IMG/VR virus record: IMGVR_UViG_3300028549_000365
Coordinates: 128,001 to 192,000 of that record
DNA length: 64,000 nucleotides
Strand: one strand, 5' to 3'
Origin: a virus
Taxonomy: Duplodnaviria; Caudoviricetes
Shown: positions 2,934 through 22,035 of the stretch, one piece after another
Numbering within the stretch: the stretch's first letter is position 1
How the letters are laid out: each line of letters begins with the position of its first letter
The notes under the pieces: model-generated
Database searches by the model: none
What the model saw: only the letters and a program-made list of their open reading frames with translations
What the model was told of the DNA's origin: nothing
Made by a program: the position numbers and the translations under genes

Positions 2934-3089
2934 CGAGCATCCTTATAGTTATTTCAGTTAATCGATATAGTGTAACTATTTTTTTATAATATATACATAT
3001 CTATGATACAAAATATCCAAGTGGTAAAACACTTGTAATACAACACGAAAATATGGTGCTGTGATAATTAAAAGTAATATTTTTTTAAA

Positions 3090-3106
3090 CATATATTATT
3101 TAAGTA
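3090..3106 (+). promoter_or_regulatory. CATATATTATT promoter motif upstream of chmA
   Basis: Recurrent motif, 83 nt upstream of the ATG. Confidence 0.6.
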
Positions 3107-3172
3107 GAGTGTATAGCCAATGCACCTATAAAGTTGTCGACAGCTTTATTAATTTAATTTAAGGAGTACAAT

Positions 3173-5041
3173 ATGGCATTAAAAGGACAAGAAGGATTTG
3201 ATCCAAACCACGGAGCTAACAATTTAGCGGAAGCAACAGCTAATAGAGGTTTTAACCAACAAGCAAGTGCAAGAGCAGGTGATGACGTTAGACCTAGTAT
3301 TGGATTTGGAGGTAGAGATATCTATATCATGAATTCTAACCAAGGTTCAGGGTATACTAACGGAATTGCTACAGCTATGGCTGAAGCTTATGTTAAACTA
3401 CCTGCAGGTGCTAAACCAAGATTAAATGTTCTTGATAAAGAAGCAATCAACGGTCTAGCGTATTCAGTTATCGTAGTAAGTGTACAAAAGAGTGATAAAG
3501 TTTTCTACTTTACAATCGCGTTAGAGGGAACAGGTAGACGACCTATGAAAGCTGGCGAAATCATCGCAGAAGTTAACAGAGAGAGAAACCCTAACCAAAA
3601 TCAAAGAGCGAATGTGTTTACTACAGATGATGCTATTGATAAAGTATTACATGCAGAAATTGGAAGAGCTTTAGCTGCAGAGTATCCTTCTATTAAAGAG
3701 TTCATGCCTGTTGATGGTGTAGTTGTACCTACATTGCATGACGACGCTAAATCATTAGCACAAAGATTAGCATCTATTGGATATAACGCTACAACTGTAG
3801 ATAGTGCATTAGCTTCTGGTGAACACCAAGATTTAAATATCACAAAAGCTCTTAACGATTCACCGAATGTTGCATTAAGACTAGAAGTTAACATGATGAA
3901 ACAAACTGCTAGAAACGAAGTTGATAAACCAGTTAGACAAGATTTTGCTATTGAGCTTAACACTGTTGATATGAGTAACACTATACAAAGTATTAACTTA
4001 CAAAACTCTAAAGATACACTTGTAAGAGTTTCTGGTTATATTGATGCTATTGCTAACGAGTATGAAATTCCTACTATGATGGGTATGCCACCACAAACAA
4101 AAATTGGTTTACATCCACATATTATTATCACAAGTAGTGCTGTTAAAATACCAACTCCTGGTTATGCATTGTTAGGTATTATCTCTGCGTTAACTATGAC
4201 TAACCCAGCTATGTGGGTAGCTAGTGTTACGCCTAGAGAACAAAAAGATCCACACGATGCTGGTGCACTTAACATCATGACAAATCTTGGAAGAAACCAA
4301 AACAAAATTGGTGAAAAACTTGACTTACTAAGCAAAACAATTCAGACTGAAGAAGCTTATAGTTTCATTAGACAAATGTTTAGTGAGAAACCAGTTATAT
4401 CTTTCGACGTTGAATCATTTGGACCACAAACATATTACAACAGTATGTTAGCTATTGCTGCTCAAAATGGAAATTCTACTGCAAAACAAAATGCATTAAA
4501 TGAAATTATTGAAACTGCTAACTGGCTAACTAACGGAAACTTCCCACAAGATTTCCCTAGAGATAAAGTATTTGTATATGGCGGAGTAGTTGTACCTATG
4601 GGTTCTTACGCAGATAAAACTGGTGAAAGAGATATTAGAGATATCGACTTAGCATACATAGCAAACAAAAGTGGTGATGTAGGAATGATGAACTCATGGG
4701 TTAAATCATCAGTACCTGGAACTGGTGCTACTGATCCATTCCTAGCTAAAACTATGATTATTGCAAGTTTGATTCCTGATGCTGAAATCTCTGGTAAAGC
4801 TATTAGAGTTACATTCTCTGGTATGTTTGTTGAAACATTAGCTGCTGCTGCTGCTGCTGCGGGACTTGATGCTAAATATGAACCAGCTATTGTATTTGCT
4901 GAATCTCATAACCTTGGTATGATTAACAACTTTATGGCTGGTGCTGGTGTAAGTAACGCTTATGGTTTCGCTAGACAAAGTATGGCTGCTGGTCCTAACT
5001 TCCAAATGGGTTATGGTGGTGTAGGTTACCACAGACACTAA
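3173..5041 (+). CDS. chmA: Chimallin, phage nuclear shell protein
   Basis: 622 aa. Collinear matches to recalled 201phi2-1 gp105 segments: KPVRQDF~NPIRADI, HDAGAL~KDIGAL, PVISFDV~PVFQIDL, GERDIRDID~EKRDRRDLD, SGKAIRVTF..FVETL..AGL~TGKAERCTY..FIEAL..AGL. Lies upstream of nvRNAP beta-prime as in phiKZ. Confidence 0.9.
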   Translation: MALKGQEGFDPNHGANNLAEATANRGFNQQASARAGDDVRPSIGFGGRDIYIMNSNQGSGYTNGIATAMAEAYVKLPAGAKPRLNVLDKEAINGLAYSVIVVSVQKSDKVFYFTIALEGTGRRPMKAGEIIAEVNRERNPNQNQRANVFTTDDAIDKVLHAEIGRALAAEYPSIKEFMPVDGVVVPTLHDDAKSLAQRLASIGYNATTVDSALASGEHQDLNITKALNDSPNVALRLEVNMMKQTARNEVDKPVRQDFAIELNTVDMSNTIQSINLQNSKDTLVRVSGYIDAIANEYEIPTMMGMPPQTKIGLHPHIIITSSAVKIPTPGYALLGIISALTMTNPAMWVASVTPREQKDPHDAGALNIMTNLGRNQNKIGEKLDLLSKTIQTEEAYSFIRQMFSEKPVISFDVESFGPQTYYNSMLAIAAQNGNSTAKQNALNEIIETANWLTNGNFPQDFPRDKVFVYGGVVVPMGSYADKTGERDIRDIDLAYIANKSGDVGMMNSWVKSSVPGTGATDPFLAKTMIIASLIPDAEISGKAIRVTFSGMFVETLAAAAAAAGLDAKYEPAIVFAESHNLGMINNFMAGAGVSNAYGFARQSMAAGPNFQMGYGGVGYHRH

Positions 5042-5620
5042 CAGCTTAGCTGTTAGTTGGAAAGAGAGTATGTTGGACTCTCGTGTATAGCATGTTGACA
5101 TGGTTTATAGTTATACAAAGGTTAAGTAGCGACTAACCAACCGCATAGGATGTTTTCCTGTGGTTAACAGCGAGTTTAGTAGTTGTATATATAATGTTGT
5201 TTGCACTTGCAAAATATTTATACGTTACGGTTATTAAGCGTTGAGACTAGTTTTACTTACTAAGGGTATTGTAAGTATTATGGAAGGTCTCTTATTGGCG
5301 GTTTACGGACGAACTTCGTGAACAAGCCGTGCAAATTTGCTTAGGTGGTTATTGATATCGCATGGAGTTTATGTAACAGTATGGTAGTTATATAAATGTA
5401 GAAGTTAGTTATCTTAAAATAATTACCTGACACACTGGTAAAAGAGTGTCATAACATGTGAATGTTATGTTAGGGTCTCTGACACAATATAGACAACGTT
5501 AGAGTGATATAGTGGGTTCCTATATCTAGTTATTAATATCGTGATCGAAATATTAATAATGATTATAAGGCTTTGATCATCACAGCAGTCTACGACTTAA
5601 GAAACGAGACTGGCTGGTTT
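5042..5620 (+). ncRNA. Candidate large structured ncRNA (family unknown)
   Basis: No ORF. Contiguous series of hairpins with G-U pairs (GAGAGT/ACTCTC, GAGAC/GTCTC enclosing TACTTAC/GTAAGTA, GGTAGTTA/TAATTACC, GACAC/GTGTC, CTCTGAC/GTTAGAG, GATATAG/CTATATC, CAGTC/GACTG) immediately before the tRNA cluster. Strand inferred from neighbours. Confidence 0.45.
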
Positions 5621-5621
5621 T

Positions 5622-5699
5622 ATAGAATATAGCTTAATGGGAGGAGAGCGTTCGATTACCATCGAAAGGTTACAGGTTCGAGTCCTGTATTCTATACCA
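5622..5699 (+). tRNA. Atypical tRNA with 6-nt anticodon loop (TTACCA), identity undetermined
   Basis: Acceptor ATAGAAT/ATTCTAT-A-CCA, T arm ACAGG-TTCGAGT-CCTGT, anticodon stem TTCGA/TCGAA closing only 6 nt. Confidence 0.7.
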
Positions 5700-5722
5700 A
5701 AAATAAACAAAAAGGATACACT

Positions 5723-5872
5723 ATGAAAGTAAGAATGTCATTAGTAGCTGCGTCAGCTATTGTTAAATTAAATACTAGAATAAAAGACTATTCTTTAAAA
5801 GCACAAGTTCTACAATCTAGAACACCAGGTAAATCAATACCATTAAGTACTACTGTTAAACAGGATAACTAA
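5723..5872 (+). CDS. Small basic protein (49 aa) inside the tRNA cluster
   Basis: AAGGA RBS; MKVRMSLVAASAIVKLNTRIKDYSLKAQVLQSRTPGKSIPLSTTVKQDN; 3-prime end overlaps a tRNA-like element. Confidence 0.45.
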   Translation: MKVRMSLVAASAIVKLNTRIKDYSLKAQVLQSRTPGKSIPLSTTVKQDN

Positions 5873-5971
5873 CTGCACAAACTTTGTTAGACTATACCGC
5901 AACGACACAGGTTCAGCGCATTCTAGTCTAACATCAACATAATGTTATGGGTTCAACTCCCAAGTAGTACA
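5847..5971 (+). ncRNA. tRNA-like RNA with extended anticodon arm
   Basis: Acceptor GTACTACT/AGTAGTAC-A, D arm GTTA-AACAGGA-TAAC, T arm TGGG-TTCAACT-CCCA, central 10-bp stem TGTTAGACTA/TAGTCTAACA with a 29-nt loop. Confidence 0.55.
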
Positions 5972-6040
5972 CTAGACAGTTTCTCCAATTACAGTTTAGA
6001 TTCCAGCGTAGAAGTTTTTAACACTTCTTCTACGCTGTTA

Positions 6041-6117
6041 GGGTTGTTAGCTCAGCTGGTAGAGCACTCGGCTCATAACCGAGCGGTCGATAGGTTCAAA
6101 TCCTACACAACCCACCA
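6041..6117 (+). tRNA. tRNA with CAT anticodon (Met or Ile2-lysidine)
   Basis: Canonical cloverleaf: GGGTTGT/ACAACCC-A-CCA, CTCGG-CTCATAA-CCGAG, T loop TTCAAAT. Confidence 0.93.
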
Positions 6118-6127
6118 ACAATATTAT

Positions 6128-6227
6128 GTATAGCCTTTCATGTGGCGAGAAGTGCTGGTTACGACCGGCAGGGCATGGTAACTTATGTTACACATATTCC
6201 TTATGGGTTCAACCCCCATGCTATACA
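6128..6227 (+). ncRNA. tRNA-like RNA with 6-nt loop (TTACGA) and very long variable arm
   Basis: Acceptor GTATAGC/GCTATAC-A, arm TGCTGG-TTACGA-CCGGCA, ~30-nt variable hairpin (GTAAC-TTAT-GTTAC), T arm ATGGG-TTCAACC-CCCAT. Confidence 0.6.
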
Positions 6228-6364
6228 CAGCTATGAATATTATATAGTATAATATGATGTCTATAAACTAGATCTTAAATATTGGTACTGTAAAATCTAC
6301 TTTAATATAAGATTTATTATGATTATAGATTAGTCATTTGTAACTATAAATATTCATACTTTAT

Positions 6365-6563
6365 GTAACTATAGCTCAGTCTGGTAGAGCGCGGGGATAT
6401 CAGTGTGTTCTAATTTGTGTATGAGATACACAGCACACTCCGAAGTCATTGGTTCGAATCCAAAGCTTAGTCTGGTAGAGCGCGGGGATATCAGTGTGTT
6501 CCAAAAGTATTTTTACTTGACATACACACTCCGAGGTCATTGGTTCAAATCCAATTAGTTACA
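6365..6563 (+). ncRNA. Double tRNA-like RNA: one acceptor stem enclosing two D/insert/T modules
   Basis: Acceptor GTAACTA/TAGTTAC-A. Each module has D arm GCT(C/T)AGTCTGGTAGAGC, stem CGGGG/CTCCG enclosing 41 nt, and T arm ATTGG-TTC(G/A)AAT-CCAA. Confidence 0.7.
6373..6554 (+). repeat. 91-nt tandem direct repeat with divergent 23-nt cores
   Basis: Unit 1 is 6373-6463, unit 2 is 6464-6554. Three mismatches outside the cores 6411-6433 and 6502-6524. Confidence 0.9.
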
Positions 6564-6583
6564 CCCTTACGTTTATCGTTTGA

Positions 6584-6655
6584 GTACACTTAGTTCAGTA
6601 GGATAGAATCTGCCTCAAAAGGCAGGGGTCGCTGGTTCGAGTCCAGCAGTGTACA
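6584..6655 (+). tRNA. tRNA-Asp-like body with remodelled anticodon loop (TCAAAA)
   Basis: GTACACT/AGTGTAC-A; TAGTTCAG..GG.TAGAAT, CTGCC/GGCAG and GGGTCGC.GGTTCGAGTCC resemble bacterial tRNA-Asp; no GTC anticodon and no CCA. Confidence 0.65.
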
Positions 6656-6871
6656 CATTATGTTTCCTGTAACTTTATGTTCTAGATGATCGTTTTCTAA
6701 CGGTAGTTTCTTTCTGTGTTATTGGAGTTTACATTGAAGAATAATATATAGTAAGATGGAAGAGTAGCTATATATTATATTCCTTTTATATTGACTTTAC
6801 AAAAAAGATATGGTGTATTTATATACTGTTATCACTGTACGTAGTCTGACGGTGATCTTCCGCTTAAATAT

Positions 6872-20394: not shown

Positions 20395-22035
20395 CGAACA
20401 TTCAGTATAACTCGTTATGTAACTGTATAGTTACGTTATACCAGCACCACGACGTGCCTCTATGCCTTTCGTTAAGGTAACTCTGTTACCGCATAGTCTA
20501 GACTATATCTTTATCCTACGTTATCACATCGTAGGATATCTACCACTTTGTCTTTAAGGGGATTACCCCACCACTTGGCGCTACTCCCAGCTACGGGATA
20601 GTCGTTGAACGTTGCTCTATTCGAGCCTTCGCTGCTGATTTCCGATTACACCTGGTCTCAACCAGTAGCTACTAACAGTTGATAAGACTGCCTAGTTATA
20701 CTTTCGATATAGATGTTGACCACTTAAGATCATATGTTAGTTTTTCAAGCGTTCACACTTAGAGCTATTCGCTCTTATGTTGTAGCACTAACATCTTTAC
20801 GGGTTCCCAGACAGTTCAATAGATTATCACTATATATTACTATATAGTGGGACTATTAATATAATTGTCTTTTATGCGATTTAAACTATTATAGTCTAAG
20901 TCTTTAAATGGAGTTTGATCATGTTCGTATTTAAATAAGAACTGTTTAACAGGTTTATTAATATTGTAACGACACGCGTTACTTATAGAGGTTGTGTTCA
21001 CACCAGTTATTTTAGCCATAGCCATTATATTATCAGCAATAATAAGTTCGTTACTCATAACATTCTTACCTAGTATTTTACGTCTAATACCTTCATTATT
21101 TTTATTTAAAATAATGTCGTCCCAAGAACTATCTTTTCTTTTAAATATGTAACCATCTGGAAAAAACTTCTGTGGTCTATTTAATCTGTTAGTTATGGTA
21201 CTATGAGGTAAGTTTATATCTCTACTACATTCAGCTATAGAAATATATTCTTTTACTATACCGGTATTAATATTCTTTATAGATATACCTACAACACTAT
21301 TTGGTGTTAAACCATTATTTATAGCATGAATATTATTATCTCGTTTAGTTACCCATTCTAAATTATCTAAGTCATCATCTCCTGGTGTACCGTTCTTGTG
21401 GTTAATTACTAGTTTGTTAGGGTCAGTAGTGTAGTCTATAAAGGTTAATCCGACAGCGCGGTGTCTAGCCAAAGCTGTGTTATTTCCAATATCATTAGTA
21501 ACACTTGTCCGTTTATAACCACTAGTTATATTCTTAATATTAATTATACCTGGTTTAGCTATATGCCAAAGTTTTATTCTGTTTGATAACAAACTATATA
21601 AGTCCAAATTAGCTGATATTAGATAATTGGTGTGGTACGGTATATAATAAAATCCTTTTATAGTTGTGTGTTCAATTAGACACGCGAATTTATAAAATAT
21701 ATTATTAATATATGTATTATATCGGTTATTATCAATATAACACACTAATACATCTTTAATATTTGCTATAGGTATATTAATATTATACACCGTCACAATC
21801 ACAACTAACCCGAATTCATAATACAATGTACCATAAACCCAATCTAATTTAATCTTTTTAACCCCGTTAATTATTTCTGTTTTAATCATGTCTCCATTTA
21901 AAGTATAAATACAGTTATCTTCTTTATTGTATATGTATTTATCACTATGTTTTATCTTAATCGTATTATTCATGTTATCTCCTATTATTCATATAATAGT
22001 TAGATCTTCATGATTCGTAAATCATATTATTTTTA
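20388..22035 (-). mobile_element. Group I intron with HNH homing endonuclease
   Basis: Minus-strand core elements: P AACTGTCTGGGAACCC, Q AATCAGCAGCGAAG, R GTTCAACGACTA, S AAGATATAGTCTAG. Separates two in-frame halves of one gene; boundaries uncertain by up to 7 nt. Confidence 0.88.
20840..21973 (-). CDS. Intron-encoded HNH homing endonuclease
   Basis: INHKNGTPGDDDLDNLEWVTKRDNNIHA HNH motif; C-terminal NUMOD1-like HTH repeats (SIAECSRDINL; NIMAMAKITGV). Confidence 0.9.
   Translation of the reverse strand: MNNTIKIKHSDKYIYNKEDNCIYTLNGDMIKTEIINGVKKIKLDWVYGTLYYEFGLVVIVTVYNINIPIANIKDVLVCYIDNNRYNTYINNIFYKFACLIEHTTIKGFYYIPYHTNYLISANLDLYSLLSNRIKLWHIAKPGIINIKNITSGYKRTSVTNDIGNNTALARHRAVGLTFIDYTTDPNKLVINHKNGTPGDDDLDNLEWVTKRDNNIHAINNGLTPNSVVGISIKNINTGIVKEYISIAECSRDINLPHSTITNRLNRPQKFFPDGYIFKRKDSSWDDIILNKNNEGIRRKILGKNVMSNELIIADNIMAMAKITGVNTTSISNACRYNINKPVKQFLFKYEHDQTPFKDLDYNSLNRIKDNYINSPTI

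Follow-up and report, generated by a model that had tools for sequence, protein, structure and literature searches.

The stretch of DNA analysed here (the window) comprises 64 kb of a 222-kb virus record. At 3173-5041 on its + strand lies chmA, which codes for a nuclear shell protein (chimallin) of 622 aa, as assigned through PHROG 4795 (E 1.7e-47), PF25677 and tblastn matches to annotated nuclear shell proteins, with which the product shares about 25% identity. The nearest database relatives of this ChmA, one of them filed under Arcobacter sp., are only 40-54% identical to it; in a quick tree it sits on a terminal branch of 0.49 with no close relative, and a search for shorter ChmA fragments yielded a single one, at 49%. 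Directly behind chmA, on the + strand, follows a structured non-coding tract of about 580 nt (5037-5621), which abuts a tRNA-like gene with a 6-nt anticodon loop (5622-5699, + strand; ARAGORN; Rfam RF00005, 45 bits). The rest of the non-coding island (5700-7035, + strand; ARAGORN, Rfam and terminator scan) holds the only canonical tRNA of the cluster that spans 5622-6978, a tRNA-Met(CAT) at 6041-6117, and ends with the first strong terminator (hairpin plus U-run) downstream of chmA, at 7004-7035. Altered members of the cluster include the two genes with 6-nt anticodon loops, at 5622 and 6584, and genes with anticodon-arm insertions of about 35 nt, found as a tandem pair (6366-6563) and at 6872-6978. 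These assignments confirm the position between chmA and the tRNA cluster given in an earlier note made from the letters of this DNA. The limits proposed there, 5042-5620, shift slightly: the first hairpin starts at 5037, which places the chmA stop codon within it, and the last nucleotide of the unit is 5621.

The longest + strand ORF in the tract has 26 aa. On the minus strand, ORFs inside the tract reach up to 33 aa, and an 87-aa antisense frame overlaps its first 60 nt only. ORFs of at least 70 aa cover 91.5% of the genome, in which the longest internal gap is 5102-7384 (a larger one, at the end of the contig, probably reflects an ORF truncated where the record stops), so that the description of an ORF-free region in a gene-dense genome holds. 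A small-peptide gene in the tract was tested and dropped, and an alternative genetic code in which TAG and TGA are read as sense opened nothing convincing.

Upstream of chmA we located an early-promoter-like motif that is conserved in the clade (3084-3108, + strand), with a score of 29.7 bits on a weight matrix that models the early-type motif and was built from 27 sites in relatives. Over the whole of 3201-7400 the best score of this matrix was 4.9 bits. A second strong copy (8937-8961, 31.6 bits) lies upstream of an RNA polymerase subunit gene, and about 14 sites score above 18 bits genome-wide, the top ones all on the + strand of the record. A sigma-70 scan returned 20 sites versus 19 expected. 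The motif at 3084-3108 resembles the early promoter of phiKZ, from which we take it to be a promoter, and transcription through the tract likely starts there. In phiKZ, chmA has an early promoter of high activity (PMC13282480, PMC8244752). As the early-type motif does not recur between chmA and the tRNA-like cluster, and no strong terminator precedes that at 7004-7035, one transcript probably carries chmA, the tract and the tRNA-like cluster, in line with the co-transcription with chmA suggested in the earlier note.

Folding of the tract

Global folding of the + strand of the tract gave -160.7 kcal/mol (z -4.18), with none of 100 shuffles as good, and that of the - strand gave -111.1 kcal/mol (z -3.35). 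Local folding of the tract in two runs yielded z -7.4 and -6.2, to be compared with 31 genome windows, whose best-strand z averaged -2.0 (sd 1.9) and only one of which fell below the tract. The fold has 16 hairpin loops and 181 pairs, 20 of them G-U, and the pairing probability exceeds 0.7 in most of its helices. Our results hence bear out the hairpin density claimed for the region, namely at least ten stems, several with G-U pairs. These stems had been described as adjacent or nested; adjacent they are, but deep nesting is not seen, only 4 of 190 pairs spanning more than 100 nt, and local hairpins simply follow one another along the tract. A 7-bp helix linking the 5′ and 3′ ends of the tract was looked for and not found.

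The 5′ edge of the tract is a 9-bp hairpin over the chmA stop codon (5037-5057, p=0.97), and a hairpin over or just behind the chmA stop is present too at the related loci L002, L015, L051, L008 and L018. There follow, all on the + strand, a 5′ block of four hairpins delimited from pairing probabilities (5064-5165, with hairpins at 5064-5082, 5084-5117, 5120-5138 and 5139-5165), a long irregular hairpin whose 14-bp basal stem contains many G-U pairs (5174-5239, p=0.94) and a middle block, again from pairing probabilities (5243-5430), with nested stems at 5243-5291, 5296-5329 and 5341-5430, the last being a 13-bp stem with an inner 11-bp hairpin. The predicted fold then continues with six short adjacent hairpins (5432-5580), among which that at 5450-5469 is capped by the sole GNRA tetraloop of the tract, and closes with a terminal hairpin (5583-5616) and UUUU next to the tRNA-like gene. 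This last element (5583-5621), the only tract hairpin followed by a U-run, is a candidate weak terminator or processing boundary. Presumably the 5′ end of the tRNA-like gene at 5622 is cut by RNase P, which would free the 3′ end of the tract.

Such hairpins could also be piled-up terminator-like palindromes or a signal at the DNA level, that is, a replication or recombination site, with no function as RNA. The same strand does fold well with DNA parameters (z -5.15), and the near-perfect palindrome arrays found in L020 and L026 fold equally on both strands. In the tract, however, the two strands differ (local-fold dG of -154 for the + strand versus -110 for the - strand) because of its G-U content, the G-U pairs of the stems failing on the other strand, which argues that the sense-strand RNA is the folded molecule. 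The restriction of the U-run to the last hairpin does not fit stacked terminators, repeats or a GC-skew switch that would mark an origin are missing, and the tract is single copy in its own genome (nhmmer). We consider an explanation at the DNA level quite improbable.

Comparison with known RNA families

A cmscan against Rfam, one of the checks proposed in the earlier note, returned two chance hits at E <= 10 on 5030-5625 (596 bases), group I (RF00028), OLE and the small ribozymes being unmatched. As a control, the same search recovers the two group I introns of the genome, at 20479-20870 of the window (- strand) and L045:759-1165 (G000 93058-93464), with 72 and 50.9 bits; another group I intron was seen in a relative, at L019:2958-3366. 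The RNase P RNA models (RF00010 and RF00011; types A and B) gave no matches, with controls positive in 11 of 14 genomes. ARAGORN detected no tmRNA, and RF00023, which scored 140.6 bits on its positive control, yielded only a 17-nt T-arm match in a tRNA-like gene (E 0.53). The models thus agree with the first reading of the sequence, in which no tmRNA, RNase P or group I core had been recognised. Two words near 5281 and 5601 that resemble the P4 of RNase P were rejected: they pair without the bulged U, and no P2 could be drawn.

Membership in ROOL or GOLLD, on the other hand, had been put forward, and it does not survive. The ROOL covariance model (RF03087) found no match at E <= 10 in the whole genome; its cut-off is 99.1 bits, and the positive controls, from phages EFDG1 and Lb338-1, reached 260.6 and 213.5 bits. 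No match at E <= 10 was found with the model of the conserved 3′ domain of GOLLD (RF02032), in a search that produced sub-threshold hits in five control genomes and had no true GOLLD gene among its controls. Two real ROOL RNAs folded in the identical way have 51 of 191 and 45 of 169 pairs spanning more than 100 nt, and a long terminal helix. With a home-made structure-aware aligner, validated on ROOL-ROOL and L002-L015 only, the score over the reversed-sequence control was +193 for ROOL against ROOL and +7 and -32 for the tract against ROOL. The features that the tract does have in common with ROOL, a place beside phage tRNA genes and a length of about 580 nt, are not specific. The tract is therefore not a ROOL or GOLLD member, and what remains of the original proposal is a structured, non-coding, sense-strand segment beside tRNA-like genes.

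A highly diverged ROOL, GOLLD, RNase P RNA or tmRNA might still have been imagined from the ROOL words in the tract, 7 of 10 being present with one mismatch, and from the loose resemblance of the words near 5281 and 5601 to helix P4. Yet the ROOL words are out of order and their number is reached in 6% of shuffles (which have 4.6 +/- 1.2 such words), the alignments to ROOL are at background, and the covariance models are silent at E <= 10 while giving 261 and 214 bits for the ROOL controls and 141 for tmRNA. This explanation is largely refuted and we find it hardly credible.

As another possibility, the tract might represent a new class of large RNA, folded intricately as a single unit into a cage or scaffold like those of ROOL and GOLLD and held by kissing loops invisible to energy minimisation. 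Its length equals that of ROOL (574-587 nt), it occupies the same place 5′ of a tRNA gene as ROOL does in phage EFDG1, the paired fraction and the hairpin count are similar, and its ends are conserved with a variable middle (see below). Against this, a long terminal helix is missing from the tract and long-range pairs are nearly absent, compared with 45-51 in ROOL, and its local hairpins are more stable than those of ROOL (z -6.2 versus -3.0 and -1.5). It is conserved in 0 of 21 relatives, whereas ROOL and GOLLD are widespread. A cage or scaffold of this kind is clearly unlikely.

Eleven large, GC-richer ORF-free gaps of RaK2 were also compared with the tract and showed no sequence or structure-aware similarity to it. 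What the tract does share with the stable RNAs of phage tRNA regions is that it is a structured non-coding unit in a tRNA cluster.

Homologues of the tract

The search for homologues, also proposed in the earlier note, succeeded in part: a full-length homologue was not found, and the sole partial one is a 474-nt contig from a different sample (wastewater, run X2). This run is labelled RNA-Seq and flagged as probably DNA, and we used it as a source of the homologue, not as evidence of expression. The contig, at depth 10, spans about 5048-5662. Two stretches match, ordered as they are in the tract: 5071-5124, with 4 differences over 54 nt, and 5579-5659, where 6 differences and 4 gap positions were counted. 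Between these conserved ends the contig has 317 nt instead of 454 (137 nt shorter), and this middle is not alignable. The terminal hairpin is kept with one U fewer. A relative has thus retained the two ends, together with the junction to the tRNA-like gene, and has a different middle. Short contigs of the same run also match the window exactly, at 3571-3839 in chmA and at 5274-5423 in the tract, though weakly, at depth 2-4. Among the data sets listed as containing this DNA, the best match was a microbial-mat metagenome, possibly the sample of origin and distinct in habitat and study from the wastewater run; no RNA data set was listed.

Other collections yielded nothing of the kind. The best blastn match among 50,697 phage records had an E value of 2, and a plasmid search retrieved a tRNA T-arm match only. 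Exact patterns gave no match in IMG/VR bar one chance 18-mer in a coding region, and none in GTDB genomes beyond 25 chance 16-mers that did not extend. An nhmmer search of the loci behind chmA in relatives found no homologue of the tract.

The site behind chmA in relatives

The DNA that follows chmA was inspected in 21 distinct relatives. In 13 of them it comprises at least 190 nt of non-coding DNA (a count that includes L020, where an 87-codon frame may be present), with tRNA genes inside in five. The other eight have less than 100 nt, usually with a single terminator hairpin, which shows that the element is dispensable across the clade. Most of the 13 tracts fold with z -3 to -6, none has detectable homology to the tract of the window, and the relatives form a continuum, with a single terminator hairpin at one extreme and, at the other, arrays of 5-10 hairpins upstream of a terminator. 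The site behind chmA looks like a hot spot at which structured RNAs and tRNAs can be exchanged for one another; we found no description of this hot spot in the literature searched.

One RNA of about 350 nt at this site is common to a sister lineage (L002:5879-6245, L015:2225-2575 and L051:2005-2359), with alignment scores of +116 to +151 within the family and of about -3 against the tract. A GAAA-capped hairpin is invariant in it, as is an 11-nt motif (CCUAAG / UACGG), which we take to be a tetraloop receptor. In the two helices that flank this receptor (n=3), four pairs have changed on both sides and none is broken, the pairs being counted from anchored motifs; a MAFFT-based consensus fold misaligns the receptor helix. 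From these features the sister RNA looks folded in three dimensions, and it is better supported as a folded ncRNA than the tract itself. The GAAA loop, a CCUAAG-type receptor on the + strand and an alignable core are all absent from the tract. As the two are not homologous, the sister RNA supports the site and not the sequence of the tract. A pattern search for further members of this family gave three chance hits only, and the conserved RNAs behind chmA in relatives had no Rfam or phage-database matches.

Several of these loci have features of their own. L008:6735-6860 and L049:5697-5830 share a structured element of about 130 nt directly behind a tRNA-Val-like gene (73% identity, E 1e-14), Rfam-negative in L008 too, one hairpin of which recurs in the tract behind chmA in the same phages. 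Both phages also carry a copy of the early-promoter-like motif inside the tract behind chmA (L008:6070-6090 and L049:5020-5045), from which part of their RNA island may be transcribed without chmA. L020:6723-7160 packs about ten near-perfect palindromic hairpins into 440 nt behind chmA, and both strands fold there (z -14 and -21); these palindromes are possibly a DNA-level feature or stacked terminators. At the Arcobacter-associated locus L040:6858-7743 the order is chmA, 170 nt, canonical tRNA-Met and tRNA-Leu, and about 450 nt of structured non-coding DNA (z -5.0), downstream of which lie a terminator, the promoter motif and an RNA polymerase subunit gene.

One way to read the site is as a dedicated launch site for large folded RNAs at the 3′ end of chmA, the tract and the sister RNA being new classes made in step with the shell and acting on shell assembly, on the localisation of the chmA mRNA or as decoys against defences. 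We regard this as rather doubtful.

A close rival to the reading that we prefer takes the tract for nothing more than a long, structured 3′ UTR that belongs to the chmA mRNA and acts in cis, with no free RNA that has a role of its own. Its hairpins would block 3′-to-5′ exonucleases after release of the tRNA-like RNAs and damp read-through from the chmA promoter. The stop codon inside the first hairpin, the lack of an early-type promoter of the tract's own, the beads-on-a-string fold, the final hairpin with UUUU and the gradation among relatives from single terminator hairpins to hairpin arrays all agree with such a UTR. One or two hairpins would nonetheless be enough for 3′ protection, and phage 3′ UTRs are mostly shorter than 100 nt (PMC10914365). 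The X2 homologue moreover keeps both ends, and at the same site in the sister lineage a tertiary-contact motif is kept. We hold a mere 3′ UTR to be possible though somewhat unlikely.

Discussion

The explanation that we favour, tentatively, is that the tract encodes a stable RNA, specific to its lineage and of the type known from phage tRNA islands, which is carried on the chmA transcript and probably serves as a protective or decoy RNA. The tract would be the first element of a non-coding RNA island of about 2 kb at the 3′ end of this transcript. Polymerase starting at the strong chmA promoter would read through the tract into the tRNA-like cluster; the 3′ end would then be set by host RNase P, through cleavage directly in front of the tRNA-like RNA that starts at 5622, or by a pause at the final hairpin with UUUU, and the 5′ end by an endonucleolytic cut or by decay of the mRNA up to the stop-codon hairpin. 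The expected product is an abundant, nuclease-resistant RNA of about 570 nt.

In nucleus-forming phages RNA exits the shell, and host nucleases and defences that target RNA can then reach it. In the cytoplasm, structured RNA in bulk might engage such ribonucleases and RNA-directed defences as a decoy or a sponge, a role that the non-decoding tRNA look-alikes downstream might share, and the tract RNA might also shield the chmA message from 3′ decay. It is the neighbourhood of the tract, together with analogy, that suggests this function. The tract itself would be a cassette specific to its lineage, the same site being occupied by unrelated RNAs in related phages.

If the chmA transcript does carry exchangeable structured RNAs and tRNA mimics, this would be a simple way to mass-produce protective RNA as the nucleus is built, and the locus behind chmA offers a concrete test site in any culturable member of the clade. 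Even as a mere long 3′ UTR, the tract would be an unusually elaborate mRNA end, though of modest interest.

RNAC and RNAD of phage T4 are much shorter than the tract. They are stable RNAs of unknown function in the tRNA region of a lytic phage (PMC9697503), and lnc001 and lnc002 of Staphylococcus phage K are expressed lncRNAs beside tRNA genes (PMC9241854). Like all of these, the tract is non-coding, structured, lineage-restricted and located beside tRNA genes; unlike them, it is a predicted RNA, their expression having been shown, and no sequence likeness to them was found. In addition, lnc001 of phage K has its own early promoter, whereas the tract starts on the chmA stop codon.

In this last respect the tract is closer to ncRNA1 and ncRNA2 of phage PAK_P3, which are processed from 3′ UTRs (PMC10914365). 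These have no start site of their own and are freed from the 3′ region of the upstream gene, as would be the case for the tract, although they measure about 120-210 nt against its 580 nt or so and belong to an unrelated phage, and their processing has been shown where that of the tract is proposed. The ncRNAs of phiKZ have barely been described (PMC13282480, PMC10914365).

ROOL (RF03087) and GOLLD (RF02032) are likewise phage-encoded and next to tRNA genes, and the size of the tract is near that of ROOL (10.1101/2024.12.08.627333). It differs from both in having no model match, no long terminal helix, no wide conservation and almost no long-range pairing. The sequence of the tract is new, and the kind of RNA to which it would belong is already known.
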